DNA from: Dehalococcoidales bacterium
GTDB taxonomy: Bacteria; Chloroflexota; Dehalococcoidia; Dehalococcoidales; RBG-16-60-22
Reading direction: 5' to 3'
Assembly: GCA_034418415.1 (NCBI GenBank)
Contig: DAOULS010000111.1
Coordinates: 1,157-65,156, forward strand
Length of the DNA stretch: 64,000 nt
The stretch's first letter is position 1; each line of letters begins with the position of its first letter. This document shows positions 18,402 to 56,974 of this stretch, in pieces. The notes beneath the pieces are model-generated. The model saw nothing but the letters and a program-made list of their open reading frames with translations. It was not told where the DNA came from and ran no database searches. A program made the position numbers and the translations under genes.

Positions 18402-18502
18402 CATAACGATTAGACATAACACTAAAACGAATAAAAACAAATCAGCTACGACCCAAAGCTAAAACAACAAAAAAATTTTTTCCAAAAACAAATAAAACGA
18501 AT
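18402..18502 (-). repeat. Dispersed ~100-bp AT-rich repeat, copy A (inverted relative to B and C)
   Basis: Reverse complement matches 56874-56974 at 92/101 nt, ungapped. Confidence 0.9.
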
Positions 18503-18552
18503 CAATAATCAAGAGTGAAGAAACCCACCGGAGTCACGGGCTTTCTGGGTAT

Positions 18553-19023
18553 CTATTCTAGGGGTACATCACCTTTCCCGCACCTTACATCGTCATAACA
18601 AAAGTCCTGTTGCCTTCTGGCTTCCTGCTCGTCAATCCACTTTTCCAGACCGATTTCCTTCATCCTCTTCCCATCGTAGATTACCGTCGGCTCGCTTTTA
18701 GCGAATCTCTCTATCATCTCGCAGGGATAATCCGTGCACATCGGGCAGGCTTCTATACCCTTGTCTTTGGCGCACTTCCTGATTTTACAGGCAGGATGGC
18801 CGCACGTTTCCTCCCTGCACCTGTTGGTGACTTTCGGATAGGCCAGGCTCTTAAGGAATTTCCAGAATTGTTCAAAACCCTCTACACTTTGCCCCCACTC
18901 CTCCCAGTCCCCGGCTTTCATCGTTTCCATCAGGGCTGATGCCTTTTGTGGCATGCGGCATCTGGTTCCGCAGTTAGGACAATATATACCGCAATACGTA
19001 ACCTCGCTTAGTCGTTCCATCAT
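18553..19023 (-). CDS. DUF3795-family Cys-rich protein
   Basis: YCGIYCPNC..C, CREETC...CKIRKCAKDKGIEACPMCTDYPC. Confidence 0.75.
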   Translation of the reverse strand: MMERLSEVTYCGIYCPNCGTRCRMPQKASALMETMKAGDWEEWGQSVEGFEQFWKFLKSLAYPKVTNRCREETCGHPACKIRKCAKDKGIEACPMCTDYPCEMIERFAKSEPTVIYDGKRMKEIGLEKWIDEQEARRQQDFCYDDVRCGKGDVPLE

Positions 19024-19046
19024 ATGCTCCCCTTAACAGAGTATGG

Positions 19047-19703
19047 TTATTGCTTCTTCCTCGGTGGGTTTTTACGTCCCGTCGTCAGCTTGCAGCGGAC
19101 TTCTCGCTTAACAAGGGCCGCCAGTTCGTTTTCATGTGCTTCCAGAAACCGCTCGACCGCCTGCCGGTCGCGCTTCAAGAGGTCGCGCAGGGCCCATGAC
19201 ATTCCCTTGACCACCATATCATCACGGTCACTCACCAGAGTTTCACAGACCATCAGCGTGCGCGGTGTGTCTCCGGTGCCGCCCTGGGCTTTACGGTTGA
19301 GGAACACGGTACAGACCAGCGCCGCCCGACGCCACCACCGGCTCTTGGAGCGTGTCCAGCTCATTACCCGGGTATCGCTCAGCAGCCCCTCGCGCCAGGC
19401 GGGCCCCGCTATCGCCGTGAAGGCGTCCACCAGACCCCAGCTATCCATCCGGTTCCCGAGTGGCTCTAAATATTTCCAGGTAAGTGCTTTTCTGGCTGTG
19501 GGGTGATTTTTGAGTGTAACCACGGCCGACCAGATGTAGCGCCATTCGTCCATCATGAACAGACGGGCCGCCAGTTCCATAGCTTCCTCATCGGAAAGCG
19601 TGCTCAACTCTTCCATGTAATCGGCGGGTAATTTTCTCTTACTTCGGAATACACCTTTATCGGCAAGCTGCATTGTTGTTTGCAGTATTTTTTCTACACT
19701 CAT
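19047..19703 (-). CDS. DNA alkylation repair protein (AlkD-like HEAT repeat)
   Basis: MDSWGLVD, WWRRAALV, DRDDMVVKGMSWALRDL. Confidence 0.8.
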   Translation of the reverse strand: MSVEKILQTTMQLADKGVFRSKRKLPADYMEELSTLSDEEAMELAARLFMMDEWRYIWSAVVTLKNHPTARKALTWKYLEPLGNRMDSWGLVDAFTAIAGPAWREGLLSDTRVMSWTRSKSRWWRRAALVCTVFLNRKAQGGTGDTPRTLMVCETLVSDRDDMVVKGMSWALRDLLKRDRQAVERFLEAHENELAALVKREVRCKLTTGRKNPPRKKQ

Positions 19704-19717
19704 CGTATATTCCTTTA

Positions 19718-20206
19718 TTACGTCCCGTCGTAAACCCAGTTATGCATATCCACGAATTGAGGTGCCCGGTGACCGAGCATCTGCCTTATTGAATTAATTT
19801 CACCCATGTGGTACCAGGTATGAAAGATACAGCGTACCAGCAACGTGCCCCAGCTTTCTCCCCCCGCCAGCGGATTTTTACATTTCTCCTGCAGGATTTC
19901 TTTATTGGCTGCCTGCAGCCATGCATCCGAAGCACTGCAGGCATCTTTCCATAGGGACAAGGCTTCCTCGAGAGATGGTTGAGAAGGCGGCGCGCCGTAA
20001 CCGTATGGCAGGAACCGGGAATCGGTATTACGGTCTTTTGACCAATCTACAAAATATGCCTGATGCTGGCACGCCACGTGGGCAATTATCCAGCTGATGC
20101 AGTTCATCGGCTCGATGCGTTTACGGGCGTCTTCGTCGGTCAGTCCCTCTAGATTCCTTTCGAACTCCTTGCGGGTGAGGTAAAGCATTTGGACCAGCGT
20201 GTGCAT
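19718..20206 (-). CDS. DinB-family protein
   Basis: MNCISWIIAHVA...CIFHTWYHMGEINSIRQMLG. Confidence 0.8.
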   Translation of the reverse strand: MHTLVQMLYLTRKEFERNLEGLTDEDARKRIEPMNCISWIIAHVACQHQAYFVDWSKDRNTDSRFLPYGYGAPPSQPSLEEALSLWKDACSASDAWLQAANKEILQEKCKNPLAGGESWGTLLVRCIFHTWYHMGEINSIRQMLGHRAPQFVDMHNWVYDGT

Positions 20207-20298
20207 TTCAAACCCCCTTAACCTGTAAAGACTTTAAGAGGTATATAATTAGGCGCTTTCCAGATATTCATGGTACGTCGCAAGACTCCGGAGAGGAC

Positions 20299-20649
20299 TT
20301 ATTTCGGTGATGTTCCGCCGGCCTTGTGGACCAGTCGCCAGGTCACCAGCACAATCAAAAGGCCGCCGACGACGATTATAGTAATGAGCCACCAGCTTAA
20401 TGGTCCTTCGGATTCGGTGGGTGGCCCTTCCAGAATGACAGTGGAGGAAACGGACTTTGTATCCGTTGAAGGTAAACTGGAGTTGTCCGTTATAGCGGCA
20501 ACGGGTCTTGCTGGCAGTTTTGGGAAAATACATGTCACCGCCAGCAGGCACAGGAATATTATAGTAACGTAAGATAGCTTCCTGTACATAATCACTCTAA
20601 AAAGATACTCTTTTTTATTGCAATTTTCAATATACTCAATCCTTGGCAT
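20299..20649 (-). CDS. Small hypothetical membrane protein
   Basis: Hydrophobic segments at the N- and C-termini around a Ser/Thr/Pro linker; start uncertain. Confidence 0.4.
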   Translation of the reverse strand: MPRIEYIENCNKKEYLFRVIMYRKLSYVTIIFLCLLAVTCIFPKLPARPVAAITDNSSLPSTDTKSVSSTVILEGPPTESEGPLSWWLITIIVVGGLLIVLVTWRLVHKAGGTSPK

Positions 20650-20782
20650 AAAAATGACGCGGCAATTATCCCGATGAATAAGTAAAAGTGGAGCCGGGGT
20701 GACAATAGGCAGAACTTTTGAAATGGTATTCCCCCTGCATATTTAGTAGAATGGAAACCAGACTAGAAGCAGATGAATAGCG

Positions 20783-21895
20783 ATGGTTAATTGGAAAGAA
20801 AAGCTTAATGGGGATCCTATACCTTGGCTGCTGGAACACGACGAGACCCAGCCAGCCATTCGCTATTATGCCTTGCGTGATATCCTCGGCCGGGACGAGA
20901 ACGATAAAGAAGTCAAAGCTGCGAGAGCGGCTATCATGGCAAGCGGACCGGTGCCAGTGATCTTGGCGGCGCAGCATCCGGAGGGATATTGGGGAAAACG
21001 ACCCAGGTACACCGGGACGATGCCGGCTATCGTTTTCATGGCGCAGCTTGGGGCGGACGGAGCTGACCCGCGCATTCACGCAAGCTGTGAGATTCTGCTT
21101 TCCCGATACATCGACAGCAATGGTGCCCCTCTGGGTAGTCTGTCATTGAAAGGCACGCCTTCTGGTTCCAGCTATTGCACGGCGGGTATAATGGGGGCGG
21201 CTTTGATTGACTTCGGCTGGCTTGAAGACCAACGCTTGCAGGCAGTAATGGAATGGCTGGCACAGACTATTACCGGGGAAGGAGTGGCTGACACTTCGGA
21301 GCGCGATACAAACAAACGTTACGGTAGGTCTAGGAGTTCAGATCCTTCATTCGCCTGTCCACAGCGTAATGCTAATTTGCCATGCGCCTGGGGCGCAATA
21401 AAGGTGATGATTGCCTTGAACAAAGTACCAACGGCACAGCGAACCAGAAATATGCAGGAGGCTATCAAACGGGGTGTGGACTTTCTGTTGAGCCATGACC
21501 CGGCGGTCGCCGATTACCCCTTTGGCAAGGGGAACAGGCCTAGCTCAACCTGGTTCAAGTTCTATTATCCTCTCCGCAGCGAAGCCGATGTGCTTCAGAA
21601 CCTTGAGGTCCTGGCAGCGCTGGGGCAAGCCAAGAATCCCAAGTTAGCCAACGCGTTAGATCTGGTCATTAGTAAGCAAAACCAACAAGGACGCTGGTTG
21701 CTTGAACGTACCTACAAGGAGTTGGCGGACACACAAGAAAAGAAAGTCTTTTATTGGTACCAGAACTCCCTGAGACTTTATATAACCGGCAAGGAGTTGG
21801 CGGAGATACAAGAAAAGAAAGGTCAACCCAGCAAGTGGGTCACTCTGAGAGCTTTGCGTGTTCTGAAAGCGGCTTATCCAGGAGAACGGAGTTAA
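20783..21895 (+). CDS. (alpha/alpha)6-barrel prenyltransferase/squalene-cyclase-like protein, copy 1
   Basis: DPIPWLLE..PAIRY, QHPEGYW, CAWGAIK, QNQQGRW (QW-like), SKWVTLRALRVL. Confidence 0.7.
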   Translation: MVNWKEKLNGDPIPWLLEHDETQPAIRYYALRDILGRDENDKEVKAARAAIMASGPVPVILAAQHPEGYWGKRPRYTGTMPAIVFMAQLGADGADPRIHASCEILLSRYIDSNGAPLGSLSLKGTPSGSSYCTAGIMGAALIDFGWLEDQRLQAVMEWLAQTITGEGVADTSERDTNKRYGRSRSSDPSFACPQRNANLPCAWGAIKVMIALNKVPTAQRTRNMQEAIKRGVDFLLSHDPAVADYPFGKGNRPSSTWFKFYYPLRSEADVLQNLEVLAALGQAKNPKLANALDLVISKQNQQGRWLLERTYKELADTQEKKVFYWYQNSLRLYITGKELAEIQEKKGQPSKWVTLRALRVLKAAYPGERS

Positions 21896-21912
21896 ATATC
21901 CGGAAGCTAAAG

Positions 21913-21985
21913 TGGAGATAGGGGGATTCGAACCCCCGACCTCCGCGATGCGAACGCGGCGCTCTCCCAGCTGAGCTATATCCCC
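21913..21985 (-). tRNA. tRNA-Ala (anticodon CGC)
   Basis: Reverse complement GGGGATATAGCTCAGCTGGGAGAGCGCCGCGTTCGCATCGCGGAGGTCGGGGGTTCGAATCCCCCTATCTCCA; G3:U70 Ala determinant present; CCA not fully encoded. Confidence 0.95.
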
Positions 21986-22016
21986 ACGGTGACAGGATTA
22001 TTATAACATATCGTGA

Positions 22017-22823: not shown

Positions 22824-22870
22824 CTATATCTCCCTGTTGTAGCGCTGTTTTATTCTAATCATTAACGGTA

Positions 22871-24055: not shown

Positions 24056-24146
24056 TCATTCTCCGTACGGAGTCCTGTATTTTTATGTCCAAAATCCACG
24101 TCATAATACTACCTTTTCAAGCTGGTGACTTCAAGTAGTCTATATA

Positions 24147-25415: not shown

Positions 25416-25418
25416 TTC

Positions 25419-26831: not shown

Positions 26832-26927
26832 CCAGAAATGGGGACTGGAGACGGAAAGAGGGGCTTGTTTTAGTGCACGGAACCGAATGGCTGCTACTCC
26901 ATTTTAGTGTACTTAAGAACAGGGCTT

Positions 26928-27590: not shown

Positions 27591-27773
27591 TTCGCTCCTG
27601 TTGCCTCGGAGTTAGATTGCTCTTACCTTTATATTTTAAAACGTTCGTGTCAAAATCTCAAACTCGACGCATTAAGTCTGGGGTACTATATCCAGGGTAC
27701 GATAATAAATAGGACTTACTAACAGACGTGATACGTCCGAAGGGCGGTTTGGAGAATTTATGCAAATGATAAT

Positions 27774-40869: not shown

Positions 40870-40964
40870 TTGTTAATGTCCTGAATAGTAATTATAGCAT
40901 AACTGAAGGACGCCGATAAAAGGCAGAGAATCGACGGGGGAATGCAAGGGCAGATTTTTTATGT

Positions 40965-41057
40965 GGTATTCGTTTTATTCGTTTTTTGAAAATATTTTTT
41001 TGGTGTCTTAGCTTTGGACCGTAGCTGATTCGTTTTTATTCGTTTTGGATTTATGTT
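40965..41057 (+). repeat. Dispersed ~100-bp AT-rich repeat, copy B
   Basis: ggtattcgttttattcgtttt..ggtgtcttagctttggaccgtagctgattcgtttttattcgtttt, aligns with copies A and C. Confidence 0.85.
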
Positions 41058-41188
41058 AAATATTTCATGCCAGCACCGACGGTCCGGTGTCCCATGTCCA
41101 CAACAACTGTAATATAAAACCGGGTAATAAGCAACCAAAAATTGTCATCTGACGTGCTATAATAATGCAACAGCAACGGGGAGGGACA

Positions 41189-41536
41189 ATGAAAACGCTT
41201 TTCTGGTCGCGACTGGACGAATTGATTAAGTCGTCGCGGATAGTCATCGACAGGCCAAAGGGTACCCCGCATCCAAAGTATCCCGACCTTGTATTCCCGC
41301 TGGACTACGGTTACCTGGAAGGCACAACGGCTATGGATGGCGGGGGCATCGACCTGTGGATAGGCACGGCAAAGCACCGCGAGCTTACCGCGATAGCCTG
41401 CACGATAGATATCAAGAAAAAGGACGCGGAAATCAAGCTGCTTATAGGATGTACGGACGAAGACATAGAGACTATCAAAAAGTGTCATAACGACGAGTTC
41501 ATGTCCGGCATTATCGTGCGGCGGTCTGAAGATTAA
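41189..41536 (+). CDS. Short inorganic pyrophosphatase-like protein
   Basis: IVIDRPKG..HPKY...PLDYGYLEGT..DGGGID. Start after GGAGGG. Confidence 0.7.
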   Translation: MKTLFWSRLDELIKSSRIVIDRPKGTPHPKYPDLVFPLDYGYLEGTTAMDGGGIDLWIGTAKHRELTAIACTIDIKKKDAEIKLLIGCTDEDIETIKKCHNDEFMSGIIVRRSED

Positions 41537-41587
41537 GCGCCTTGAACCTTCACCCTCGAAACGTTAAAGTAATAGTAGGGGAACGTT

Positions 41588-42976
41588 GTGATTGACGCTA
41601 AAAAAATAGAAAAGCTGCGTAAAATTGTCGGCAAGGAGAACGTGCTGGACTCCGTCGAACAACTGACTGCCTATTCTTACGATGCCACGAATATATGGTC
41701 GCATTTGCCGGACGTGGTCGTTTTCCCGACGAATACGGAACAAATTTCGGAAATTCTAAAATTAGCCAACGAAAACGGCATCCCGGTAACGCCGCGTGGC
41801 GGTGGCACTAATGTCAGCGGCGGCTCAATACCTATCAAGGGCGGCATAATCCTCTGCACTACCAAGATGGGACGGATTATCGAGATAAGTAAAACCAACC
41901 TGAACGCTACGGTCGAGCCGGGCGTGGTTTTACAGGACTTTCAAAATGCTTTAGCGAAGGAAGGGCTGTTCTTCCCCCCCGACCCTCAGAGCTTCGCCGG
42001 CTGCACGATGGGCGGGGTCATCGCGGAAAATTCCGGCGGGCCTTCCTGCCTGAAATACGGCGTCGCCAAGCAATATGTCTTAGGTCTTGAGGTGGTCCTG
42101 GCTGACGGTCAAGTAATGAAGCTGGGCGGACTCACGCCGAAAAACCGCACCGGCTACGAGCTGATGATGCTGTTCACCGGCTCCGAGGGCACGCTGGGGG
42201 TTATCAGCAAAATAACCCTGCGCCTGCTGCCGGCGCCTAGGGCCAGCAAGACCATCGTGGCGGTTTTTAACGACGTGGCGGTGGCCGGGGAGACCGTGAC
42301 CGCTATCATCGCCAGCAGCGTCCTGCCTTCGAAAGTGGAGTTTGTGGACAACTGGACTTTCGAGAAGTTCCGCAGCCTCCTGCCCGGCCATATGCTCGAT
42401 GCTTCGCAGGTAATTCTCTTGATACAGGTGGACGGCCTACCGCAAACAGTGGAGGCTGAAACACAGCAGGTCGTGGATATCTGTAATCAGTGGGCGCGCC
42501 AGGTCAGGGTCGCCGCCGATGCGGTGGAAGCTGATAAATACTGGCAGGCGCGGCAGGCGCACTTCTCCGACATATCCAGTCGCGCCCATACCATCATTAA
42601 CGAGGACGTCTCCGTACCGCGTGATAAGATAGCCGACTTTATCCGATTAAGTCAGGAAAGCGCCAAACGCCACGACGTGCCGATCAGCTTCGCCGGACAC
42701 GTGGGGGATGGTAATTTCCACCCGGTCGTGCTTACGGACAGTCGGGAAAAAGAGCACTACCAGCGCGCTCTGAAATGCGTCGATGAAATTATCGAAATAG
42801 CTTTGAAGCTTGGCGGCGTACTCTCCGGCGAGCACGGCATCGGACTGGAAAAGCAGCGTTTCCTCAAGAAAGCCATGGACCCGCTGGCGATAGAAACGAT
42901 GAAGAAGATTAAAGATATCCTCGACCCCAACCACATTCTCAACCCCGGTAAAATCTGGGAAGAATCTAAAGAATGA
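41588..42976 (+). CDS. FAD-linked oxidase (GlcD / D-lactate dehydrogenase-like)
   Basis: PVTPRGGGT, FFPPDP, GSEGTLG, GHVGDGNFH, LSGEHGIG, ILNPGK. Confidence 0.9.
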   Translation: MIDAKKIEKLRKIVGKENVLDSVEQLTAYSYDATNIWSHLPDVVVFPTNTEQISEILKLANENGIPVTPRGGGTNVSGGSIPIKGGIILCTTKMGRIIEISKTNLNATVEPGVVLQDFQNALAKEGLFFPPDPQSFAGCTMGGVIAENSGGPSCLKYGVAKQYVLGLEVVLADGQVMKLGGLTPKNRTGYELMMLFTGSEGTLGVISKITLRLLPAPRASKTIVAVFNDVAVAGETVTAIIASSVLPSKVEFVDNWTFEKFRSLLPGHMLDASQVILLIQVDGLPQTVEAETQQVVDICNQWARQVRVAADAVEADKYWQARQAHFSDISSRAHTIINEDVSVPRDKIADFIRLSQESAKRHDVPISFAGHVGDGNFHPVVLTDSREKEHYQRALKCVDEIIEIALKLGGVLSGEHGIGLEKQRFLKKAMDPLAIETMKKIKDILDPNHILNPGKIWEESKE

Positions 42977-46975: not shown

Positions 46976-49900
46976 CTATCTCTTTTTCCTCGTCAACAAC
47001 CTGCTTAAAAGTTCTCGAAGTTGTTTTACGCTGTAAGGCTTGGCGATAACAGCCTTAAATCCATATTTCCTATAGTCGGACATAATCGGGTCGGTAGCAT
47101 AACCGCTGGACACGATTACGGTAGCTTGAGGGTCTATTTCCAGTAGCTTTTTTACCGCTTCTTTGCCGCCCATGCCTCCCGGAATGGTCAGGTCCATGAT
47201 AACGGCATTAAACGGGTCTCTTGCCTTTTTTGCCTGCTGGTATTTTTCCAGAGCTTCAACTCCGTCAGCTGAAACCTCCACTATGTAGCCGGCCATTCCC
47301 AACATATTCTTCAGCATTTTCCTGATTACTTCTTCGTCGTCCATTATCAATATCTTGCCGCCCGCCTGCCTGGATTCCTCGACTGTCAATTTTTTAGCTC
47401 CTTTCAATGCTTTTTTCGTCGCCGGCAAATAAATATGGAAACTCGAGCCTTTATTTTGTGTGGATTCTACGAGTATAGCGCCGTTGTGGTTCTTGACCAC
47501 GGAATATGCCGTCGTCAGTCCCAGTCCGCTTCCTCTCTGTTTGGTGGTGAAATAAGGCTCGAATATACTCTGGAGTTGTTCACGGGACATGCCTATCCCC
47601 GTGTCTGTGATATCTACACGGATATAGTTGCCTCCTCGGAGAGGCAAAGCATCACTTTTCTTTACAGCCTGGTTTACGGCGCTGATTTTTAGTCTCCCGC
47701 CAATCGGCATGGCTTCATCGGCGTTAATAACCAGGTTGTTAATGACCTGGCTGATTTGCCCCTCGTCAGCTTCTATCGGCCACAATTCATCTGAAAAAGA
47801 TAATTCCAGCTTGACCTTAGAACCTCTCAAAGCGAACTCGGCGGATCCTTTAATTAGATCGGCGGCGTTAACCAGTTTCTTCAACGGTTTACCGCCTTTA
47901 GCAAAGGTTAAAAGCTGCTGTGTCAGGTCTCTGGCTCGTACCGCAGCTCCTTCCGCTTCGTCAAGCATCTCATAAGTGGGGTCGGAGGAGGAAATATATG
48001 TCTTTACCAGGCCGATGTTTCCCATGATGCCCGTCAGAAGGTTATTAAAATCGTGCGCGATGCCACCCGCCAGCATTCCGATTGTTTCCATCTTGGCCAT
48101 ACGCAATCGCTCCTGCTCCTGCAATTCATTAGCGGCCACTAATTCCATATCGCGGAGAGCGAAAGCTATATCCATGGCAACCTCGTCAAAGAGGGAAATT
48201 TCCTCTGTATCCTGTATCAATTTCTTGGATATTGAAGCGCACAGGATACCATAGTTTTTCCCTTCTATTTCCAGCCTGACGGTCATACTTCCAGTGTCGG
48301 CGTTGCCACATTGCGTCGGGCAACCCTTGCAGGCTTTTAACTGGTCTTCGGTTATTACCACTTGCTTGTTACTTAACGCCTTCTTAACGCATTGGGGTAT
48401 TTCCCCTTGTTTCAACGATTCAATCAAAGCAGGGAACTCCTTGTTCATATTCGCCCCGGCCCAGATAACAGGCTGCTGGTTCTCATCGAGCAGGACAATC
48501 CAGGTGCTTATAAAACTCCGGCTCTCCACCAGGCTGTCGCAGACTTTCTGGATAAGCAGACTGCGGTCCTTCTCCCGGGTAATCAACTGGTCGACGTTAC
48601 GTACGGAACGCAGCATGAGGTTGAGATGGTTGATTCTTTCTTCCGCCTCTTTTCTCTCCGTTATATCCAGCGCCGATACTACCAGGCATTTAATACCACG
48701 CAGCATTATTTGTTCTGCGGAAAACAGAAGCGTCCTGATTTCACCGGATTTAGTACGCATCAATATCTCAAAGTCCTTTAGCCGTCCCTCGGTATTAATT
48801 ATGTTGTAAAATTCCCTTCGCTGTTCCGGGTTAAACCATAAATTAAGCTCAAGTGTAGTCTTACCGATGATTTCCCGTCGCTCATAGCCGGTTATACGTG
48901 TATGTTCTGCATTAGCGTCGATGAACCGCCCTTCATCCATTGTAAGGACGGATCCCAGATTAGGAGAGGCATGAAAAGCTTTGTTGAACCTCTCCTCGCT
49001 TTCTTTGATAACCTCCTCGGCACGTTTCCGCTCGGTTATATCCAGTATCGTTGCAGTGATACCCTTGGAAGGGTCATCGGGGTCAAGGGGGGCCGAGTTT
49101 AGTATTACATTCAGGGCAGTTCCATCTTTATGTCTTAAGCGGGTCTCGAGGGTGCCGGTTCCCGTAGCAGTCATCTGACTATATATTTTACCTGCGTACT
49201 CATATTCTTCGTTGCTGTTGTATACTATTTGTGACGATTGGCCGAGGAGTTCATCGCGCGTATAACCTACCATTTCACAGAACCCCTCGTTTACTTCGGT
49301 GAAAGTACGGTCAACCAGCACGACGATACCTATGGGGGCCACACTGAAAATAGAACTCACTCTATCCTCGCTAGCCTTGCGAGCCTCCTCCGCCTCTTTC
49401 TGCTCGGTGATATCTTGAGCGAAACCTACCAGGCCGATTACTTTGCCGTCATTATCTAAAATGGGGATTTTATCCGTTTGCACCCATCTCATTCCTGCGG
49501 CAGACTCGTATTGTTCTAAGATGTTCAACTTGGGGTGTCCTGTAGTGAAGACCTCTCGGTCGTCGTTTGACATGCCTTGTGCGATGTCTTTTGAAAATAG
49601 GTCAAAAACTGTTTTCCCTAATAAATCTTTCTCGGCCATATTCAAAGCTGTTGCCATAGCCTTATTGATCCGTAGGAATTTACCCTTTAAATCCTTATAA
49701 AATACCAGAATTGGGGCTGAATCGATTATCAGCTTTATTTCCTCACTATCTCTCTCCAGCTGCTCTTCCATTCTTTTCCGTTCGGTGGTATCTCGGATTA
49801 TCATGCTGGTTCTGGCTTTGCCGTCCTTATCGTAAAATACCTTGCTGGATAATTCGATGGGAAATTTGGTTCCGTCGGCACGAACGCCGATAAGATCTCC

Positions 49901-52183
49901 GGAAAACTCACCGGTCGCCTTACGTTTTTCAAGTGCTTTTTCCAGCCGGGGGTCGGCTACATCGATTACACCGCCTCTTCCAATGCGGCAGATGTCCTCC
50001 TCACTCCTCCCGAACATCCGGCAAGCTTCAGGATTTGCCGCTAAAATTCCTCCATCCAGGGATGTCAGCAGGATGGCATCTTTGCTGTTTTCAAAAATCA
50101 GACGGTACCTCTCCTCGGACTCCTGCAGGGCTTTCTCTGCTTTCTTCTGCTCGGTAATATCAGAAAAAGTGGTATAGACCCGATAGGGGATTGTTTCCCC
50201 CTCTCTGAATTCCGGAATGGCGCTAACTAAAATCCATTTATGTTCGTTAATTTTTGGATTAAAAACTCCCATAACTACGTTTTCCACGGCTTTACCGGTG
50301 CGTAGCGCCACCATTGAGGGGTGTTCTTCGCCGGGGAAATCGGTACCGTTTTCATATATGCTTTTCCAGCGCGGGTCTGTTGATGTCCTGCCTAATATCT
50401 GGTCTATAGACAGCCCCAGAATACGTTGCGCCGCCGGATTAGCGGATATTATCTTTCCGTCAGCTAACTGATATATAACACCCTGCGCCATTGTCTCGAA
50501 CAGGCTGCGGAACCTTGTCTCACTCTCTTCTAGTGCATCTTCCGCCTGCTTCCGCTCGGTAATATCTGATGCAATCGATATTAGATACGGCTCTTCTTTC
50601 AGGGTAATTTTTGCTATAGATAGACTAAACGTCCGTATTTCTCCCGATTTTGCTCTGAATCTCACCTCGGCATTTGATACTGCCCTTCTTTTTTCCAACG
50701 ACTCTGCCATCGACCCTCTTTGCTTGGGGTCGTGCCACAAATTTAATTCGAGAGTTGTATGGCCGATTAGTTCCTTACGGCTGTATCCCGTAGCCTGGCA
50801 ATATGCATCGTTTACTTCAATTATTTGGCCTTCCTTTAGCGTTGAAATTAACATCAGGTTGGGAGAATCGCGGAATGCCAGCGAAAACATCTGCTGGCTT
50901 TCTTTCAGCGCCTCCTCTGCCTGTTTCTGCTCGGTGATGTCCCTTTGTACGGAAAGAAGGCATTTCTTATTGCCTATTAGAATGGGTTCAGCGGAATACT
51001 CCCAGGTGCGTATTTCGCCCGATTTGGTGCGGAATTGATATACTTCCTGGCTTACCCTACCGTTCTTTTCAAGTGATTGTTGTATTTTGGCGCTGTCTTC
51101 CGGGTTGACCCAGAGGTTTAGCTCGAGTGTGCTGTGCTCTATCATCTCATTTAGGGAATAACCCGTGTTTTTAACGGCGGCATCATTAGCATCGATGATA
51201 ATACCATCGTCGAGTGTGATAATCATCACAGCGTCGGGACTGGAACGGAAGGCTTTAGAAAACATCTCCTCCGTCTGTCTAAGCGCGTCATACATTTTTT
51301 TCCTGTCAGTTATATCCCGCACGATGACTATATCAATCAGTTTTTGTCTGAAATTAATCAGATTGGCGCTTATCTCTGTATGTACCGTAGTGCCGTCTCT
51401 GGATATAATATCCAGCTCGTACCGGTCCGGTACTTTCATGCCGGCAACTCTTTGCTTGTACATCTCCGCGGCATTGTTTTTTTGTTCCGGCACGATGAAA
51501 TCGATAAACGGTTTGTCGATCAACTCTTCCATAGCATAACCGGATATTTCCAGCATTTTTGAATTACAATATCGGATAAGTCTGTCTTCGATATAAACAA
51601 TGCCGTCATTGCCCTGCTCGACGAGGCTGTGATATTTTTCCTCGCTATCTTTCAGCGCTGCCTCGACCCTTTTTCGCTCTGTAATGTCTTCGTACATGGC
51701 CATGTACTGCTTTTCTCCACCCCACATTACCTCCCGGCGGAATACCATCAGGTTTCTCACCTCTCCGTCAGGCCGTCTGATGCCAAGTTCATATTCTCCA
51801 GGAACATGCTCATTTAGTTTTCGTTTCCTCTTTCTTTCCTGGAAGGCAGCATAACTCTCTGGCGTATAAAGGTCGCTCTTTTTGACCGCCGCCAGCTCTT
51901 CTACCGTCTTATACCCGAAGATATCCAGGGCTGCTTTATTGGCATAAATCAGGTCGCCATCCTCCGTCACGATGCGAACCCCCAGCGGGCAGGTATCCAT
52001 AGAATTCTTGAAGTTCCGTTCAGAGGCAAGGTAGGCCTGGGCCAGGTCGATGGTATCTACGTCAGGTATATTGTTATCGCCTCCAGCAGCATTTTTCACA
52101 GTCTGCTGGAATTTGCCCAGAAGTTCTTCGACCTTCGTCAATCTTTTTTTAAGTTCTTCATAAGTAGGTTTTTTAATTTTCAT
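46976..52183 (-). CDS. Cytoplasmic hybrid histidine kinase: 9 PAS + GAF + HisKA + HATPase + REC
   Basis: Nine PAS units ending in DITE/DTTE; AGGIAHDFNNLL; GSGLGL; C-terminal ILIMDDEE..IMDLTIPGG. Confidence 0.92.
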   Translation of the reverse strand: MKIKKPTYEELKKRLTKVEELLGKFQQTVKNAAGGDNNIPDVDTIDLAQAYLASERNFKNSMDTCPLGVRIVTEDGDLIYANKAALDIFGYKTVEELAAVKKSDLYTPESYAAFQERKRKRKLNEHVPGEYELGIRRPDGEVRNLMVFRREVMWGGEKQYMAMYEDITERKRVEAALKDSEEKYHSLVEQGNDGIVYIEDRLIRYCNSKMLEISGYAMEELIDKPFIDFIVPEQKNNAAEMYKQRVAGMKVPDRYELDIISRDGTTVHTEISANLINFRQKLIDIVIVRDITDRKKMYDALRQTEEMFSKAFRSSPDAVMIITLDDGIIIDANDAAVKNTGYSLNEMIEHSTLELNLWVNPEDSAKIQQSLEKNGRVSQEVYQFRTKSGEIRTWEYSAEPILIGNKKCLLSVQRDITEQKQAEEALKESQQMFSLAFRDSPNLMLISTLKEGQIIEVNDAYCQATGYSRKELIGHTTLELNLWHDPKQRGSMAESLEKRRAVSNAEVRFRAKSGEIRTFSLSIAKITLKEEPYLISIASDITERKQAEDALEESETRFRSLFETMAQGVIYQLADGKIISANPAAQRILGLSIDQILGRTSTDPRWKSIYENGTDFPGEEHPSMVALRTGKAVENVVMGVFNPKINEHKWILVSAIPEFREGETIPYRVYTTFSDITEQKKAEKALQESEERYRLIFENSKDAILLTSLDGGILAANPEACRMFGRSEEDICRIGRGGVIDVADPRLEKALEKRKATGEFSGDLIGVRADGTKFPIELSSKVFYDKDGKARTSMIIRDTTERKRMEEQLERDSEEIKLIIDSAPILVFYKDLKGKFLRINKAMATALNMAEKDLLGKTVFDLFSKDIAQGMSNDDREVFTTGHPKLNILEQYESAAGMRWVQTDKIPILDNDGKVIGLVGFAQDITEQKEAEEARKASEDRVSSIFSVAPIGIVVLVDRTFTEVNEGFCEMVGYTRDELLGQSSQIVYNSNEEYEYAGKIYSQMTATGTGTLETRLRHKDGTALNVILNSAPLDPDDPSKGITATILDITERKRAEEVIKESEERFNKAFHASPNLGSVLTMDEGRFIDANAEHTRITGYERREIIGKTTLELNLWFNPEQRREFYNIINTEGRLKDFEILMRTKSGEIRTLLFSAEQIMLRGIKCLVVSALDITERKEAEERINHLNLMLRSVRNVDQLITREKDRSLLIQKVCDSLVESRSFISTWIVLLDENQQPVIWAGANMNKEFPALIESLKQGEIPQCVKKALSNKQVVITEDQLKACKGCPTQCGNADTGSMTVRLEIEGKNYGILCASISKKLIQDTEEISLFDEVAMDIAFALRDMELVAANELQEQERLRMAKMETIGMLAGGIAHDFNNLLTGIMGNIGLVKTYISSSDPTYEMLDEAEGAAVRARDLTQQLLTFAKGGKPLKKLVNAADLIKGSAEFALRGSKVKLELSFSDELWPIEADEGQISQVINNLVINADEAMPIGGRLKISAVNQAVKKSDALPLRGGNYIRVDITDTGIGMSREQLQSIFEPYFTTKQRGSGLGLTTAYSVVKNHNGAILVESTQNKGSSFHIYLPATKKALKGAKKLTVEESRQAGGKILIMDDEEVIRKMLKNMLGMAGYIVEVSADGVEALEKYQQAKKARDPFNAVIMDLTIPGGMGGKEAVKKLLEIDPQATVIVSSGYATDPIMSDYRKYGFKAVIAKPYSVKQLRELLSRLLTRKKR

Positions 52184-52189
52184 GGTTCA

Positions 52190-52290
52190 AACCCCATAAG
52201 CCGGGGTTACTTACTGGCTGTTCTAAATGAAATGAGCGTCTTACATTGCTATCACCGATACATTATCTCCTGATAGCGCCGACGCTCATT
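52190..52290 (-). promoter_or_regulatory. Structured 5' leader candidate of the hybrid kinase
   Basis: Nested inverted repeats aatgagcgtc/gacgctcatt and gctatca/tgatagc; an aacccc/ggggtt hairpin covers the RBS. Confidence 0.4.
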
Positions 52291-52575
52291 AATCCATACA
52301 GCACCCCCCAAACTCATCAGTCAGAGGTCAAAAGTATTAAGTTTATTTCAAAACACCAATAATATTTAAGTGTATATTCCGTTTAAAAGTATTGTCAAGT
52401 GGCAAACGAATACCCAGCCGATAGCCATGTGACCTGTATTTTAGACGATTCTCGCGCTCTTTTTTATTCTATTGATTGTATGTTATGTTTAGCTTCTGCT
52501 TGACACCTTGAGCCTGTAATTGCTACACTTTTCTTGTTTCCCCCTGAACACAGTTGGGGCGGATTACGTAAGGAA

Positions 52576-53433
52576 ATGAACATAAAAAAAGTCGGTATCC
52601 TCTACCATCCGATGGTCGAAGCTACACTTGCCAAGGCCAAGGAACTGGAAAGCTCCTTGACCATGCAGGGAGTCGCTGCCTGGAAATGCTCCTCCTGGGA
52701 AAAAGAGGAGGTTCAGGCTATGCTCGAAGGCACCGACCTGCTTTTAACCGTAGGCGGCGATGGCACGATTCTCCGCGCGGTGCAGGCCGTCATCCCGGGT
52801 GTTACTCCTATTACCGGTATCAATCAGGGTAAGCTCGGCTTTCTGACGGAACTGGATGCTGCTGAAGCGATACAGAAATTGCCCCTGCTGTTTACCGGCC
52901 AGGGCTGGCTCGACGAGCGTGCCATGTTGCAGGCAGAGCTTGTATCACAAGGCCAGGAGCCGCGTGTTTTTCATGCCTTGAACGATATCGTCATCGCGCG
53001 GGGTGAAATCCCCCGCGTTATCCGTATCGAAGCTGCCATTGATGGCCAGCCGCTTACTGCCTTCAAAACCGATGCTCTGGTTGTCTCCACGGCAACCGGC
53101 AGTACCGGCTATGCCCTCGCCGCGCGGGGTCCCATTATGCACCCACAGTCCCGCGATATCCTGCTCGTGCCGGTAGCCCCCCATCTAAGCCTCTCTTATC
53201 CCCTCGTCCTGCCGGAAACCGCCGAGGTTCGTTTACGTCTTAACACCTACCATCCTGCTGCTTTAAACGTGGATGGCCATATCAATCTGTCCATGTCTGA
53301 TGGCGATACGGTTATTATCAGGCGCAGCCCGCATGTCGCGCGGTTTTTTAGAATACGCGCTGAAAATTCGTTTTATCTATCTCTGGAAGACAAATTGAAA
53401 GGAAAACAAGGTGAGTCAGGTAGAAAAAGCTAA
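52576..53433 (+). CDS. nadK: NAD kinase
   Basis: VGGDGT, GINQGKLGFL, ALND, STATGSTGY, VDG. Start at ATG 52576 (track start 52534). Confidence 0.92.
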   Translation: MNIKKVGILYHPMVEATLAKAKELESSLTMQGVAAWKCSSWEKEEVQAMLEGTDLLLTVGGDGTILRAVQAVIPGVTPITGINQGKLGFLTELDAAEAIQKLPLLFTGQGWLDERAMLQAELVSQGQEPRVFHALNDIVIARGEIPRVIRIEAAIDGQPLTAFKTDALVVSTATGSTGYALAARGPIMHPQSRDILLVPVAPHLSLSYPLVLPETAEVRLRLNTYHPAALNVDGHINLSMSDGDTVIIRRSPHVARFFRIRAENSFYLSLEDKLKGKQGESGRKS

Positions 53434-53866
53434 AATTACCGATGCCCAGCAAATACACAAGCTTGTCAACAAATTTTCTGAAAAAGGCTTGATGCTCGCC
53501 AGGCCTTTGAGCGAGATATACGAGTGTATCCGCGACTTTTTTGTGGTTAAAGAAGACTCGAAGGTGGTTGCCTGTGCTGCTCTGCATGTCAGCTGGGACG
53601 ACCTCGCGGAAATACGGTCGATGGCTGTTTTTGAAGATAAACAAAAAACAGGTCTGGGAGCCATGCTTGTGGCTGCCTGTCTGAAGGAAGCGGAGGAACT
53701 CGGCATCAATACGATATTCTGCTTTACCTACCAGCCGGACTTTTTCAAGCGCTACAAGTTTGTTGATATTGATAAAAAAGAGCTCCCCCGCAAGGTCTGG
53801 ACGGACTGCTTTCGCTGCCCCAAGTTCCCCGACTGTGATGAGACCGCACTGATATATCATGGCTAA
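53411..53866 (+). CDS. argA: Stand-alone GNAT amino-acid N-acetyltransferase (short ArgA type)
   Basis: MLAR.LSEIYE..RDF, LAEIRSMAV, ELPRKVWTDC..CPKFPDCDE. Confidence 0.75.
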   Translation: MSQVEKAKITDAQQIHKLVNKFSEKGLMLARPLSEIYECIRDFFVVKEDSKVVACAALHVSWDDLAEIRSMAVFEDKQKTGLGAMLVAACLKEAEELGINTIFCFTYQPDFFKRYKFVDIDKKELPRKVWTDCFRCPKFPDCDETALIYHG

Positions 53867-54413
53867 AAAGAAGACTACGGATATTGCCGAAAAGACCCTT
53901 AAGCGCAGGTATGTCTTCGAAGGACGCCTTATCAAGGTGCGTGTGGATACTGTCGATACTGCTCACGGACACGCCGAGCGTGAAATCGTCGAGCACCCCG
54001 ATGCCGTCGTCATGGTCGCTCTGGACAAGGACGATAATGTTCTGCTGGTCAGCCAGTACCGTGCCCCGCTGGGGAAAAGACTGCTGGAGATTCCAGCCGG
54101 AGTTATTGAAAAAGCTGAAGACGCCGAAGCCACGGTGATTCGTGAGATGCAGGAGGAGACGGGTTATAAGCCGCAAAAAGTTGAGTTCTTATGCGGCTTT
54201 TATACCTCTCCCGGCTTCAGCAACGAATACCTGCATCTTTATTTAGTCAGGGACTTAGTCCCCTCGCGTCTTGAAGCCGAAGACACTGCCGGCATCGAAC
54301 TCGTGCGCGTGCCGGTATCACAGATAAAGGAACTGATTACTTCGGGTAAGATACAGGATGCCAAGACCATAGCAGGACTGTTACTGTTTCTGGAATATCG
54401 TAAAAGCCGCTAG
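53859..54413 (+). CDS. NUDIX hydrolase (ADP-ribose pyrophosphatase-like)
   Basis: VSQYR, EIPAG, REMQEETG, YTSPGFSNE, DAKT. Confidence 0.9.
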   Translation: MAKKKTTDIAEKTLKRRYVFEGRLIKVRVDTVDTAHGHAEREIVEHPDAVVMVALDKDDNVLLVSQYRAPLGKRLLEIPAGVIEKAEDAEATVIREMQEETGYKPQKVEFLCGFYTSPGFSNEYLHLYLVRDLVPSRLEAEDTAGIELVRVPVSQIKELITSGKIQDAKTIAGLLLFLEYRKSR

Positions 54414-54417
54414 CTCT

Positions 54418-54786
54418 CTAGTTCACCCACTTTAACGGGCGTCCGCCCATCAGGTGTATGTGCAGGTGCTGTACCAGTTGACCCCCGTGCGCCCCGCAGT
54501 TGATGGTCAGCCGGTAGCCGTTTTTGGCGAGCCCCTGCTCCTTGGCTACTTTGTTGGCGGCCGCCACCATCTTCCCCACCAGCGCCGCATCGCTTTCCTC
54601 CATGTCCACCAGCGAAGCTATATGCTTGACGGGCACTACCAGCAGGTGTACCGGCGCTACCGGGTTAATATCCGGGAAAATAACTACGTCCTCGTCGCGG
54701 TAGATGATATTCGAAGCTATTTCACCGCCGATAATCTTGCAGAAAATGCAGTCCGACTTGCTTTGTTCGGGGGCCATCTTTAACAC
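54418..54786 (-). CDS. HIT-family nucleotide hydrolase
   Basis: DCIFCKII, DINPVAPVH, GQLVQHLHIHLMGG. Confidence 0.92.
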   Translation of the reverse strand: MLKMAPEQSKSDCIFCKIIGGEIASNIIYRDEDVVIFPDINPVAPVHLLVVPVKHIASLVDMEESDAALVGKMVAAANKVAKEQGLAKNGYRLTINCGAHGGQLVQHLHIHLMGGRPLKWVN

Positions 54787-54808
54787 CCCTTTTCCCGATA
54801 ATTAGAAA

Positions 54809-55231
54809 TTATAAATCCACCCAGACCTTGGGCGCGCCGACCGGTGAGGGCGGGCCTTTCATGTCGAGGATGGTTGCCCTGGCGTTCTTCAACTTAAAAA
54901 CGCCCACGTAGTCCCAGCCGTTTTCATCCACCCCCGGTTTGTAGAAGGTACGCTTCTCCGCGACCTCTTCCTTGAACGCCTGGTCCTTTATCTCCTCCAT
55001 CTGCCCGACTACCCTTATCTGAACACCATCGGCAAAGTAACACAGTTCGGTGGCAGGGTTTTTAATCAGCTGCTTGTAAACGTCCTTGGGTGACTGCATG
55101 GCGAAGATGATGCCGTTTTCGTCGGCCCGGTAGGTCCCCATGGCGCGAACGTGCGGCGTATTGCCTTCGGCGGTAGCCATGTAGGCGACGGGGTTTTTGG
55201 TAATGAATGCCAGGATTTCTGTTTTATCCAT
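54809..55231 (-). CDS. Pyridoxamine 5'-phosphate oxidase-like FMN-binding protein, copy 1
   Basis: YMATAEGNTPHVRAM, KQLIKNPATELCY, QIRVVG. Confidence 0.8.
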   Translation of the reverse strand: MDKTEILAFITKNPVAYMATAEGNTPHVRAMGTYRADENGIIFAMQSPKDVYKQLIKNPATELCYFADGVQIRVVGQMEEIKDQAFKEEVAEKRTFYKPGVDENGWDYVGVFKLKNARATILDMKGPPSPVGAPKVWVDL

Positions 55232-55242
55232 GAATCTGCTCC

Positions 55243-55662
55243 TTATGATAAATCGACCGGGGTTATGCCGCCCGTCATGTTCTGCATCGACCAGGTGGAA
55301 GCCTCCACCGGCTTTAGCCTGAAAACAGCCATGTGGTCCAGGCCGAATTTTTCAATGTTAGGTTTTAAGAACGGGTATTTATCCACGATTGCCTGTTTGA
55401 GTGTATTGTCTTTAAGTTCTTCTACCCGGCCGCTGACCCGAAGCTGGGTGCCATCGGCGAAGTAGCAGACCTCCGTCTCTGGGTTGGCAAGCAGCTGTTT
55501 GCAGACGTTCTTGGGATAACTGGTGAAATAGATAATGCCGTTTTCGTCGGCCCGGAAACATCCCATGCCGCGTACGTGCGGCTTGTTGCCGTCCACCGTA
55601 GCCATGTAGCCCATGGGATTTTTGGTGATGAATGCGTACATTTCCGCTTTGTTCATAATCAT
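55243..55662 (-). CDS. Pyridoxamine 5'-phosphate oxidase-like FMN-binding protein, copy 2
   Basis: YMATVDGNKPHVRGM, KQLLANPETEVCY, QLRVSG. Confidence 0.8.
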   Translation of the reverse strand: MIMNKAEMYAFITKNPMGYMATVDGNKPHVRGMGCFRADENGIIYFTSYPKNVCKQLLANPETEVCYFADGTQLRVSGRVEELKDNTLKQAIVDKYPFLKPNIEKFGLDHMAVFRLKPVEASTWSMQNMTGGITPVDLS

Positions 55663-55719
55663 CCTCCGCTTTTTTGGTCTTCACAATTCTAATAGGCTGA
55701 CTTTTTATTGTCAAATGAA

Positions 55720-56805
55720 TCAGCGGAGTTTGTTGATTACGGCGTCCGCCACCTGTGATGTCCCCACGGCCGCAGGGTCGTCGCGGCGCTCTTTCATGTC
55801 GTAGGTGACGCTCTTGCCCTCTTTGATGACCGCCGCGATGGCGCTTTCCAGTCGGTCCGCCGCCTTATCCTCCCCGATGTGCCGCAGCATCAGCACCCCG
55901 GAGAGCATCATCGCCATGGGGTTGACCTTGTTCTTGCCCCTGTACTTGGGCGCGCTGCCGTGGGTCGGCTCGAAAAGCGCAATATCCTCCCCGATGTTCG
56001 CTCCCGGCGCCAGACCCAGGCCTCCCACCAGCCCCGCACAGAGGTCGGAGATGATATCGCCGTAGAGATTGGGGGCGACGATGACGTCGTACTCCTGCGG
56101 TCTTCTCACCAGCTGCATGCAGAGGTTATCGATGAGGGCTTCCTGGAACTCGATATCCGGGTAGTCTTGAGCCACCTCCCGCGCCACCGAGAGGAAAAGT
56201 CCATCGGAGAACTTCATGATATTGGCTTTCTGCGTCGCCGTCACCTTTTTGCGTCCGTAGCGGCGGGCGTACTCGAAGGCGTATTTCACGATGCGCCGCG
56301 TGCCGTGTTCGGTAATCATCTTGATACTGATAGCGGCATCATCTCCGATGACGTTACCTTGCTTGAGTTTGATGAACTTCGCCAGGAATTTGACTTCCGC
56401 ACTCCCTCTCTCGTATTCAATCCCTGCGTAAAGGTCTTCCGTGTTCTCGCGGACGATGACGATATCAACATTACTGAAGGGGGTCGGCGCGCCGGGATAG
56501 CTCTTGCAGGGACGCAGGCAGGCGTAGAGGTCTAATGCCTTGCGCATGGCGACGTTGACGCTGCGGAAGCCCGTGCCAATGGGGGTGGTCACGGGGCCCT
56601 TGAGCGCCACTTTGTTCTTCTTGATGGACTTGATGACGCGGTCGGGCAGGGGAGTGCCCTCTTTTTCCATGACCTCGGCGCCGGCGTAAGCCAGCTCCCA
56701 GTCGAACCGCACGCCCGTGGCTTCCAGCACGCGTCGCGTTGCTTCGGTGATTTCCGGTCCCACCCCGTCGCCGGGTATTAAGGTGATTTTATGCGGTGAG
56801 TTCAT
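55720..56805 (-). CDS. Isocitrate/isopropylmalate dehydrogenase family enzyme, IDH-type substrate loop
   Basis: LIPGDGVGPE, KGPVTTPIGTGFRSVNV, RENTEDLY, KANIMK, NLYGDI.SDL, FEPTHGSAP. Confidence 0.9.
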   Translation of the reverse strand: MNSPHKITLIPGDGVGPEITEATRRVLEATGVRFDWELAYAGAEVMEKEGTPLPDRVIKSIKKNKVALKGPVTTPIGTGFRSVNVAMRKALDLYACLRPCKSYPGAPTPFSNVDIVIVRENTEDLYAGIEYERGSAEVKFLAKFIKLKQGNVIGDDAAISIKMITEHGTRRIVKYAFEYARRYGRKKVTATQKANIMKFSDGLFLSVAREVAQDYPDIEFQEALIDNLCMQLVRRPQEYDVIVAPNLYGDIISDLCAGLVGGLGLAPGANIGEDIALFEPTHGSAPKYRGKNKVNPMAMMLSGVLMLRHIGEDKAADRLESAIAAVIKEGKSVTYDMKERRDDPAAVGTSQVADAVINKLR

Positions 56806-56870
56806 ATACTCCTAATTATTCGTTTTTTAATCGTTTTTTCAAGATTTTTTCATAGCTAAACAGCTTCAAG

Positions 56871-56974
56871 GGTATTCGTTTTATTCGTTTTTCAATAAAA
56901 TTTTTTTGGTGTCTTAGCTTTGGGTCGTAGCTGATTTGTTTTTATTTGTTTTAGAGTTATGTTTAATCGTTATG
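56871..56974 (+). repeat. Dispersed ~100-bp AT-rich repeat, copy C (partial extra copy at ~56818-56850)
   Basis: Aligns with A (92/101) and with B. Confidence 0.9.

Follow-up and report, generated by a model that had tools for sequence, protein, structure and literature searches.

A dispersed AT-rich intergenic repeat of Dehalococcoidales as a possible promoter/leader cassette

An AT-rich, non-coding sequence of about 100 bp occurs in three dispersed copies within one contig of a Dehalococcoidales bacterium, which raises the question of what kind of element is repeated there and what it may do for the genes beside it. The stretch analysed, hereafter called the window, comprises 64,000 nt (positions 1,157 to 65,156 of contig DAOULS010000111.1, assembly GCA_034418415.1); it also falls within contig CAZSRM010000001.1 of a Dehalococcoidales metagenome-assembled genome, GCA_964609685.1. 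Dehalococcoidales are uncultured or hard to grow and have small genomes; to our knowledge, few of their regulatory elements are known and almost no promoters have been mapped outside the reductive dehalogenase genes. A preliminary description of the window, made from its sequence, treated the ~100-bp unit as the whole element. The unit is real, but it is only one module of a larger cassette which also contains a promoter-like block and measures ~185-205 bp, or ~265 bp where hairpins or heptamer repeats are inserted. The reading put forward here, tentatively, is that the repeat is the AT-rich module of a dispersed non-coding promoter/leader cassette which has been co-opted at leuB.

The repeated module and the block beside it

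The cassette features in the window are listed below; L numbers denote loci collected from related genomes.

18390..18503, + strand (predicted transcribed, A-rich strand): AT-rich module of copy A, nhmmer E-value 2e-27, core at 18442-18462
40965..41079, - strand: AT-rich module of copy B, nhmmer E-value 1e-26, core at 41008-41028 with 2 mismatches
56871..56985, - strand: AT-rich module of copy C, part of the predicted leuB leader, nhmmer E-value 4e-27, orthologues at L016, L018, L035 and L036
56914..56934, unstranded: invariant core TTAGCT-N9-AGCTGA with AGCT/AGCT 4-bp palindromic arms, also at 18442-18462 and 41008-41028
56815..56867, - strand: extra half-unit between copy C and the leuB ribosome-binding site, the long form also being present in L005, L018 and L036
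18324..18367, + strand: putative promoter module of copy A, promoter scan, 10/12 matches
41106..41148, - strand: putative promoter module of copy B, the weakest of the three, promoter scan and register comparison
57021..57063, - strand: putative promoter module of copy C, register comparison, conserved in the window, L018 and L035

The three copies are recognized by a 21-nt core, TTAGCTTTGGGTCGTAGCTGA, located at 18442-18462 (- strand), 41008-41028 (+ strand, two mismatches) and 56914-56934 (+ strand), which had matches in 0/100 dinucleotide-preserving shuffles. Copy limits obtained with an nhmmer profile of ten copies (E <= 1e-26 for all three) are slightly wider than those described at first and give units of ~115 bp: 18391-18503 for A, 40965-41079 for B and 56870-56983 for C. 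The pairwise repeats agree with the preliminary description. Copies A and C, for which 92/101 identity in opposite orientation had been given, are 91% complementary over 101 nt (18402-18502 and 56874-56974) with their cores on opposite strands, and copy B, described as more diverged, has the two core mismatches and is 86% identical to A over 94 nt and 89% identical to C over 97 nt. A doubled ATTYGTTTT unit adjoins the core at all three sites, the same places where doubled ATT(C/T)GTTTT units had been noticed around it, and ATTCGTTTT is found 11 times in the window vs 0.87 expected. The three gene contexts were also confirmed by Pfam: copy A lies downstream of a DUF3795 gene, copy B between nusB and an InPase-like gene, and copy C inside the leuD-leuB gap beside a GIY-YIG open reading frame (ORF) and hairpins resembling repetitive extragenic palindromes (REP).

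The partial fourth copy suspected at ~56818-56850 proved to be real and takes the form of the half-unit at 56815-56867, which consists of two ATTCG/AATCG-T6 units, an A/T spacer and AGCT-N4-AGCT, and whose AAAAACGAAU motif stops 3 nt before the AGGAG of leuB. The layout of half-unit plus full unit recurs at an unrelated locus of another metagenome-assembled genome (MAG; L005, 2330-2499), which identifies it as a long form rather than debris.

In an alignment of 14 unique copies read on the T-rich strand, the module consists of pairs of ATTCGTTTT units flanking an A/T spacer and the core TTAGCT-N9-AGCTGA, followed by two GTTATGTTAA units. The full order is a first pair formed by ATTCGTTTT and ATTYGTTTTT, a T/A spacer with a variable centre (T5-N3-A6T7), GTGTYTTAGCTTTGGGYCGTAGCTG, a second pair formed by ATTCGTTTTT and ATTCGTTTT, then AGNG, and finally TTATGTTAAAC and TTATGTTAAT separated by CG. 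The first ~85 bp are the best conserved part; the last GTTATGTTAA unit is decayed or missing in several copies, the second one being absent from copy B, and the diverged copy L009 keeps the core and the ATTCG repeats at a different spacing. The edges of the 16 non-redundant copies are sharp and their flanks unrelated, with only a weak T preference in the left flanks of 14 of them. As described earlier, the module contains no ORF on either strand; a small ORF starting from the ATG of GTTATGTTAA was rejected, its peptide tails differing per copy and two ATGs being out of frame.

The TTATGTTAAA(T/C) units bear what we take to be a resemblance to the E. coli XerD arm. A dif/Xer site is 28 bp long and is composed of a XerC arm, a 6-bp spacer and a XerD arm, with the arms partly palindromic; the units found here are direct repeats with no inverted CATAA-type left arm 6 bp upstream, and this reading was rejected. 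The same applies to sub-motif readings as sigma-54, extracytoplasmic function (ECF) sigma, CIRCE, CodY-box and boxA sites, in which either the spacing did not fit or the motif was not conserved among copies. All these sites and dif were compared with their consensus sequences by eye.

A second block, TATTATAAGRGG...GAAAGGGAAGGGGATTTTGTCGC, is conserved in most copies to the right of the module as seen in the T-rich orientation; in the collected DNA of the window and its relatives it occurs solely beside the AT-rich module and in one orientation throughout. The opposite strand of the block has a sigma-70-like register made up of an nYGACA box, 8 nt, TTnnnn, 17 or 18 nt and TAnnnT, and points into the AT-rich module. 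The register is kept in 13 of the 14 scanned copies at 20-105 bp beyond the right end of the module, and the -10 hexamer is TATAAT or TATACT in nine. The gap between block and module varies from ~21 to 105 nt and in some copies holds heptamer arrays (NNACAGT)n or REP-like hairpins. The putative promoter of copy A includes a GCGACA box (18324-18329), the -35 hexamer TTGAAA (18338-18343), an 18-nt spacer and the -10 hexamer TATACT (18362-18367). In copy B there are an ATGACA box (41143-41148), TTGCTT (41129-41134) and TACAGT (41106-41111), with TTGGTT-16-TATATT as an alternative reading, and the InPase-like gene's TGCTATAAT promoter lies back-to-back with this block. Copy C has a CCGACA box (57058-57063), TTGTTT (57044-57049), a 17-nt spacer and TAAACT (57021-57026), the promoter scan offering CCGACA-16-TATCAT with TG ahead as an alternative. 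The predicted promoters compare among copies as follows:

L006: TTGAAA-18-TATAAT, 11/12 matches
L009 (most diverged copy): TTGACA-18-TAATAT, TG ahead
L001-L003, L005 and L007: TTCCCT or TTCACT, 17/18 nt, TATAAT or TATACT
Copy C and L018: TTGTTT-17-TAAACT
L035: TTGCCA-17-TAAACT

At least four versions of the block can be distinguished, namely the G-module type, the A/L006 type, the leuB type (C/L018) and that of L009. They differ at most positions, and the in-register box, the TT of the -35 and the T1, A2 and T6 of the -10 are kept in all of them, which is the pattern expected of a constrained promoter. A forward-strand alternative with TATTAT or TATAAG as the -10 has no consistent -35 and often misses T6, and the direction into the module is considered probable, not certain. 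Copies B and C had been written in the orientation opposite to that from which transcription, if any, would proceed. Inside the 115-bp module, inspection and scanning revealed no convincing -35/-10 pair on either strand. On the forward strand of the G-module every copy has A/T/G-TG just before the boundary, and the ORFs which would follow if this were read as a start codon with a Shine-Dalgarno sequence are short and unrelated.

The strand of the module predicted to be transcribed contains 49-54% A and 8-13% G; in copy A, the T-rich 'forward' consensus of which is on the - strand, the + strand has 54% A and 9% G. Neither copies A, B and C on both strands nor the predicted leuB leaders fold above shuffled sequence (z from -1.9 to +1.0), and the covariation check with RNAalifold yielded 0 covarying pairs for 14 sequences, the sole predicted pairing being the invariant 4-bp AGCT/AGCT helix. 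In Rfam only tRNAs reach the gathering score, with nothing meaningful at the E-value threshold. A structured RNA was rejected because the module folds no better than shuffles, with one invariant 4-bp helix and no covariation, and a classical structured small RNA (sRNA) is unlikely given this lack of conserved secondary structure and of a terminator.

Two features were observed in the surroundings of copy A. A 10-nt inverted repeat (18378-18387 / 18547-18556, + strand), which has no equivalent at the other copies, encloses copy A and the DUF3795 terminator hairpin, and the putative transcript of 18374-18560 (+) folds with z = -3.3. Between the copy A cassette and the SnoaL gene promoter there is a strong GC hairpin, GGGGAGGCAG...CTGCCTCCCC followed by T7 (~18236-18272, - strand), which was missed by the terminator scan because of its long loop and stands alone after a 33-codon ORF without known relatives.

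The leuB and nusB sites and the distribution of copies

In the window, leuCD (57661-59409) is separated from leuB (55720-56805) by an 855-bp gap holding copy C. The site and the orientation of the cassette, with the predicted transcript directed towards leuB, agree in the window, L016, L018/L036 and L035:

L016: 4-fold-site identity to the window 0.87, leuB cassette present
L018/L036 (MAG JAFGHK01): 4-fold-site identity to the window 0.72, leuB cassette present
L035 (MAG JAFGOC01): 4-fold-site identity to the window 0.72, leuB cassette present
L019: 4-fold-site identity to the window 0.59, leuB cassette absent, leuD-leuB gap of 142 bp

In comparisons of the window, L018 and L035 with one another, identity is 83-90% for the promoter segment and, in all three pairs, 89% for the 73-nt core of the module, compared with 61-79% for the segment between promoter and module and 67-72% at the 4-fold sites of leuB and leuD. 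The 65/73 core matches lie ~3 standard deviations from the 0.72 expectation, an estimate in which identity may be inflated by the AT-richness of the sequence. L016 has the G-module type plus heptamers in exchange for this promoter block, with a putative promoter in the same direction remaining. In 4/4 lineages the module or the half-unit ends 3-5 nt before the Shine-Dalgarno sequence of leuB, e.g. AAAACGAAUAAUCAGGAG. From these observations, this copy seems to have been co-opted to serve leuB as promoter and leader.

The nusB site has a different history. The nusB-glcD gap is 115-117 bp long in L029/L030, L020, L026 and L033, which share 86-93% nucleotide identity with the window, vs ~610 extra bp in the window, consisting of copy B, its promoter block and the InPase-like gene (41180-41536) with its own TGCTATAAT promoter. 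Copy B is lineage-specific because the close lineages have only the short gap; together with the InPase-like gene it is found in the window's genome only, compared to the four close lineages, and the event was not a clean insertion of the element. In the distant relatives L027 and L028 the InPase-like gene precedes glcD without the element, and the suggestion that the cassette moves together with this gene is unsupported. The distribution of the InPase-like gene itself (window 40870-41590, with a FAD-linked oxidase gene as a neighbour) suggests loss and re-acquisition or recombination.

A scan of 185,579 species genomes for the exact core revealed two other Dehalococcoidales MAGs, with four and three sites, and a metagenome scan mostly returned the same contigs together with the ortholog L008 and the diverged copy L009. 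LeuB-homologue loci gave copies with core variants at L016, L018, L035 and L036, and the exact-core counts are lower bounds, as the extra copies deviate from the search pattern. In total, 16 non-redundant copies, all of them intergenic, are distributed among at least five related Dehalococcoidales lineages with at least 3-5 copies per genome, so the repeat is conserved in relatives and not confined to the three copies of the window. Many more copies genome-wide had been anticipated, which did not hold: the exact core is found only 3-4 times per related MAG, and ~110 kb of further DNA from relatives, from loci chosen by gene and therefore non-random, contained copies at the leuB site only. No blastn match was obtained among 72,556 plasmids and 50,697 phages, none among viral contigs, and none for the core sequence in a literature search. 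The family is a low-copy repeat confined to one Dehalococcoidales subclade. The preliminary description had proposed three options, namely a mobile unit, an sRNA or a protein-binding site; what stands of it is a dispersed non-coding family with presence/absence differences and no Rfam, plasmid or phage match, and the structured sRNA is the option that became unlikely.

Non-orthologous copies, within or between genomes, are 75-89% identical and do not cluster by genome (copy A and L003, which belongs to another MAG, share 89% identity). Those in different genomes are no less similar, or are even more similar, than orthologous copies, pairs of which are 74-92% identical. The similarity of paralogues may come either from copying after the lineages split or from common-factor selection on one consensus. 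The predicted transcript faces a gene start in copy C (leuB), copy B (nusB, a gene that retains a promoter of its own), L002/L008 (a glycosyltransferase gene) and L004 (radA), and a convergent 3' end in copy A (DUF3795), L001 (ruvA, 14 bp away), L003, L005, L006 and L007. The neighbours include leuB, nusB, radA, the glycosyltransferase gene, ruvA, nitroreductase genes and others, and at six loci the promoter block is back-to-back with the promoter of a divergent gene. This mixed orientation speaks against one host function common to all copies and agrees with a dispersed cassette which is of use at some sites but neutral at the others.

Proposed mechanism and alternatives

In the proposed mechanism, a sigma-70-type promoter block at one end of the cassette would fire into the ~115-bp module, which would be transcribed as an A-rich, G-poor and essentially unstructured RNA. 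The cassette was probably once mobile and may have been dispersed within one Dehalococcoidales subclade as a non-autonomous unit, either by ectopic recombination between copies or through the action of a recombinase or transposase on the repeated motifs. A copy facing a gene start would supply a promoter and an unstructured A-rich leader reaching up to the ribosome-binding site, and a copy facing a gene 3' end would produce an antisense or dead-end transcript. At leuB the arrangement would be kept under purifying selection: the cassette may restore independent transcription after inserted repeats cut the gene off from leuCD, and it would present an open A-rich region ahead of the ribosome-binding site. 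Unstructured A-rich leaders favour binding of the 30S subunit and ribosomal protein S1.

A number of observations weigh against a formerly mobile promoter/leader cassette. The copies have no common terminal inverted repeat, as noted before, and no target-site duplication is evident in the flanks of the 14 copies, both being features of miniature inverted-repeat transposable elements (MITEs). No clean pair of empty and filled sites was recovered, the copy B polymorphism being an indel which also carries a gene, and in the search for empty sites the collected DNA gave no region orthologous to that of copy A, nor the window any orthologous to those of the copies in the other MAGs. There is no transposase or recombinase among the window ORFs scanned with Pfam or annotated via overlapping loci, the last four ORFs excepted. 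The similarity of paralogues could equally reflect selection for binding of a common factor, and there is no consistent relation to genes, since a gene start is faced at ~5/11 loci and a convergent 3' end at ~6/11. With regard to transcription, no intrinsic terminator is predicted in or beside the element, there are several weak -35 hexamers (TTCCCT, TTGTTT), the -10 has a palindromic centre, TTATAA, which makes a forward-strand reading possible, and the promoter assignment is based only on consensus and comparative evidence.

It is also conceivable, if unlikely, that the repeat is a DNA-level protein-binding array and the nearby promoter is either incidental or its regulated target. The phased ATTCG-T4 and GTTATGTTAA direct repeats, the intrinsically bent A6T7 tract and the TYAGCT-N9-AGCTRA inverted repeat would then serve to wrap or load a protein, be it a nucleoid-associated one, a regulator of the Lrp type or a recombinase. 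The number and arrangement of the ATTCG-T4 units (4-6 per copy, 9-10 bp apart in pairs, with the pairs ~65 bp apart) would suit such an array, as would their retention at another spacing in L009 and the conservation of the repeat core at leuB above the neutral proxy; a consensus common across genomes, contexts and gene orientations fits a trans-acting factor. Against it, no protein was identified as a candidate, invariance extends to the N9 spacer of the core, an unusual trait in a simple dimer site, and the distance between promoter and module varies from ~21 to 105 bp, which makes a fixed-phase operator unlikely.

A purely selfish miniature element is improbable. It would be a decayed end or an internal deletion derivative of an insertion sequence without inverted repeats (IS200/IS605-, IS110- or IS91-like), with the promoter being that of the former transposase, without host function, and with conservation resulting from recent copying. 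The dispersed copies with star-like divergence and no clustering by genome are consistent with it, as are their embedding in repeat mosaics of REP-like hairpins and heptamer arrays and the variable segment between promoter and AT-rich module, which is where a gene would have been lost. Despite that, ~300 kb of related DNA contained no full-length copy with a transposase, the element lacks a subterminal GC-rich hairpin, its left flank has no target tetranucleotide that is conserved, plasmids and phages gave no match, and at leuB the copy is retained in four lineages with promoter and core conserved above the 4-fold sites.

A trans-acting sRNA family, an A-rich transcript with 4-6 AAAACGAAU motifs which would titrate an RNA-binding protein in the manner of CrcZ/CsrB or pair with U-rich targets, is very improbable: it could draw on the element's own predicted promoter, the conserved ~115-nt module with repeated A-rich motifs and a weak compositional hit to the Rfam family CrcZ in copy A (A-rich strand; 14.8 bits, E = 0.07), but that hit is far under the gathering score, which is 95, neither a terminator or defined 3' end nor conserved structure or covariation was found, and the leuB module runs into the ribosome-binding site, as a cis leader does. 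We consider it just as remote that the element transcribes itself and acts through its A-rich RNA, be it as a multi-copy protein sponge or decoy of 4-6 AAAACGAAU motifs for a global RNA-binding regulator in these anaerobes with small genomes or as the RNA intermediate of a new type of non-autonomous mobility without inverted repeats.

Related repeats and neighbouring features

The cassette is a new family within the known class of promoter-carrying bacterial interspersed intergenic repeats, and its build is unusual, being AT-rich and made of direct repeats without inverted ends. Putative mobile promoters, described by Nijveen, Matus-Garcia and van Passel, are highly similar promoter-containing intergenic sequences upstream of non-homologous genes, in the same genome or in related ones (PMC3575422). 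Like these, the cassette is represented by near-identical intergenic copies beside non-homologous genes in several genomes. Unlike that class, which is set operationally by similarity, half of its copies face no gene start and the conserved part is mostly the leader-like module and less the promoter itself. The Correia elements of Neisseria are non-coding sequences of ~100-150 bp which carry or create promoters, contain a site for a DNA-bending protein, are co-transcribed with genes next to them and vary in presence between strains (PMC2649163; review PMC3184786); their ends are terminal inverted repeats of 26 bp, a TA target is duplicated, and RNase III cuts their hairpin transcripts (PMC2649163; PMC3184786). 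In contrast to them, the cassette has no inverted ends, duplication or fold.

Modular mosaic repeats include the BIMEs and RIP of E. coli, the pneumococcal BOX and the NIMEs of Neisseria (review PMC3184786). The cassette resembles them in its modular build, with a variable middle between a conserved end module and a further conserved one, and in lying amid clusters of small repeats. Families of the BIME, BOX and NIME type are built from palindromic, GC-rich units, whereas the module is AT-rich, built from direct repeats and accompanied by a putative directional promoter. It also differs from the GC-rich hairpin palindromes of REP, BIME and REPIN, as its only pairing is the 4-bp AGCT/AGCT one, with z from -1.9 to +1.0. 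With MITEs it shares small size, absence of coding capacity, multiple copies and presence/absence polymorphism (L019 has no cassette at leuB, and L029, L020 and L026 lack copy B), but neither terminal inverted repeats nor target-site duplications. A/U-rich or CA-rich leaders bound by ribosomal protein S1 act as translational enhancers. The leuB copies are similar to them, being unstructured, A-rich and G-poor and ending a few nucleotides upstream of the Shine-Dalgarno sequence; unlike the cassette, enhancers of this type are short and not repeated around the genome.

If the promoter/leader reading is true, the portable cassette would offer a first means of comparing how promoters and leaders are designed within this clade, and it would explain how leuB stays expressed after its separation from leuCD. 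The catalogue of bacterial intergenic repeats would gain an AT-rich, direct-repeat family without inverted ends, and the family with the surrounding REP-like hairpins probably marks break points of MAG assemblies and provides useful strain markers. Were it only a decaying selfish element, its value would be one of local annotation.

The leuD-leuB gap contains other repeats as well. REP-like hairpins GGATTCCCGnTTTCnCGGGAATGAC (ATTCCC-N8-GGGAAT) are located within 57108-57648, at 57113, 57209 (- strand), 57527, 57566 and 57605; this hairpin family is common to several Dehalococcoidales genomes and was also found in L007, L019 and L015. A 39-bp tandem array of the hairpin has three units in the window and four in L015 (another assembly, same contig). 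The GIY-YIG ORF (PF01541, 4e-15; 57220-57510, - strand) is flanked by inverted REP-like hairpins in a REPtron-like arrangement. It is probably a pseudogene, as there is no start codon before residue ~49, with ATC at the place of the expected ATG, and no gene is called there in the public record. In L016, the closest relative, the same gap has an array of ~38-bp tandem repeats (~4990-5210; TTCGTATTTCGTGCTTCGATATTGTTTCGTATTTCGGA) which is not present in the window.

Tandem heptamer arrays (NNACAGT)n, which call to mind the STRR repeats of cyanobacteria, are located between the AT-rich module and the promoter block in four copies from three genomes: L004 (~4610-4690), L005 (~2505-2545), L007 (~2725-2765) and L016 (~5235-5300).

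Elsewhere in the window, a 55-nt direct repeat (89% identity) is found at 1005-1059 and 3470-3524, at the 3' ends, or close to them, of a GH39-like and a molybdopterin oxidoreductase gene, which are adjacent on the minus strand. Periodic repeats of ~372/747 bp at 46976-52183 (- strand) correspond to the PAS-domain repeats of a 1735-aa sensor protein, the length of which ranges from 1682 to 1984 aa in relatives. Repeat family D3 is accounted for by two tandem PNPOx-like paralogues at 54809-55662.

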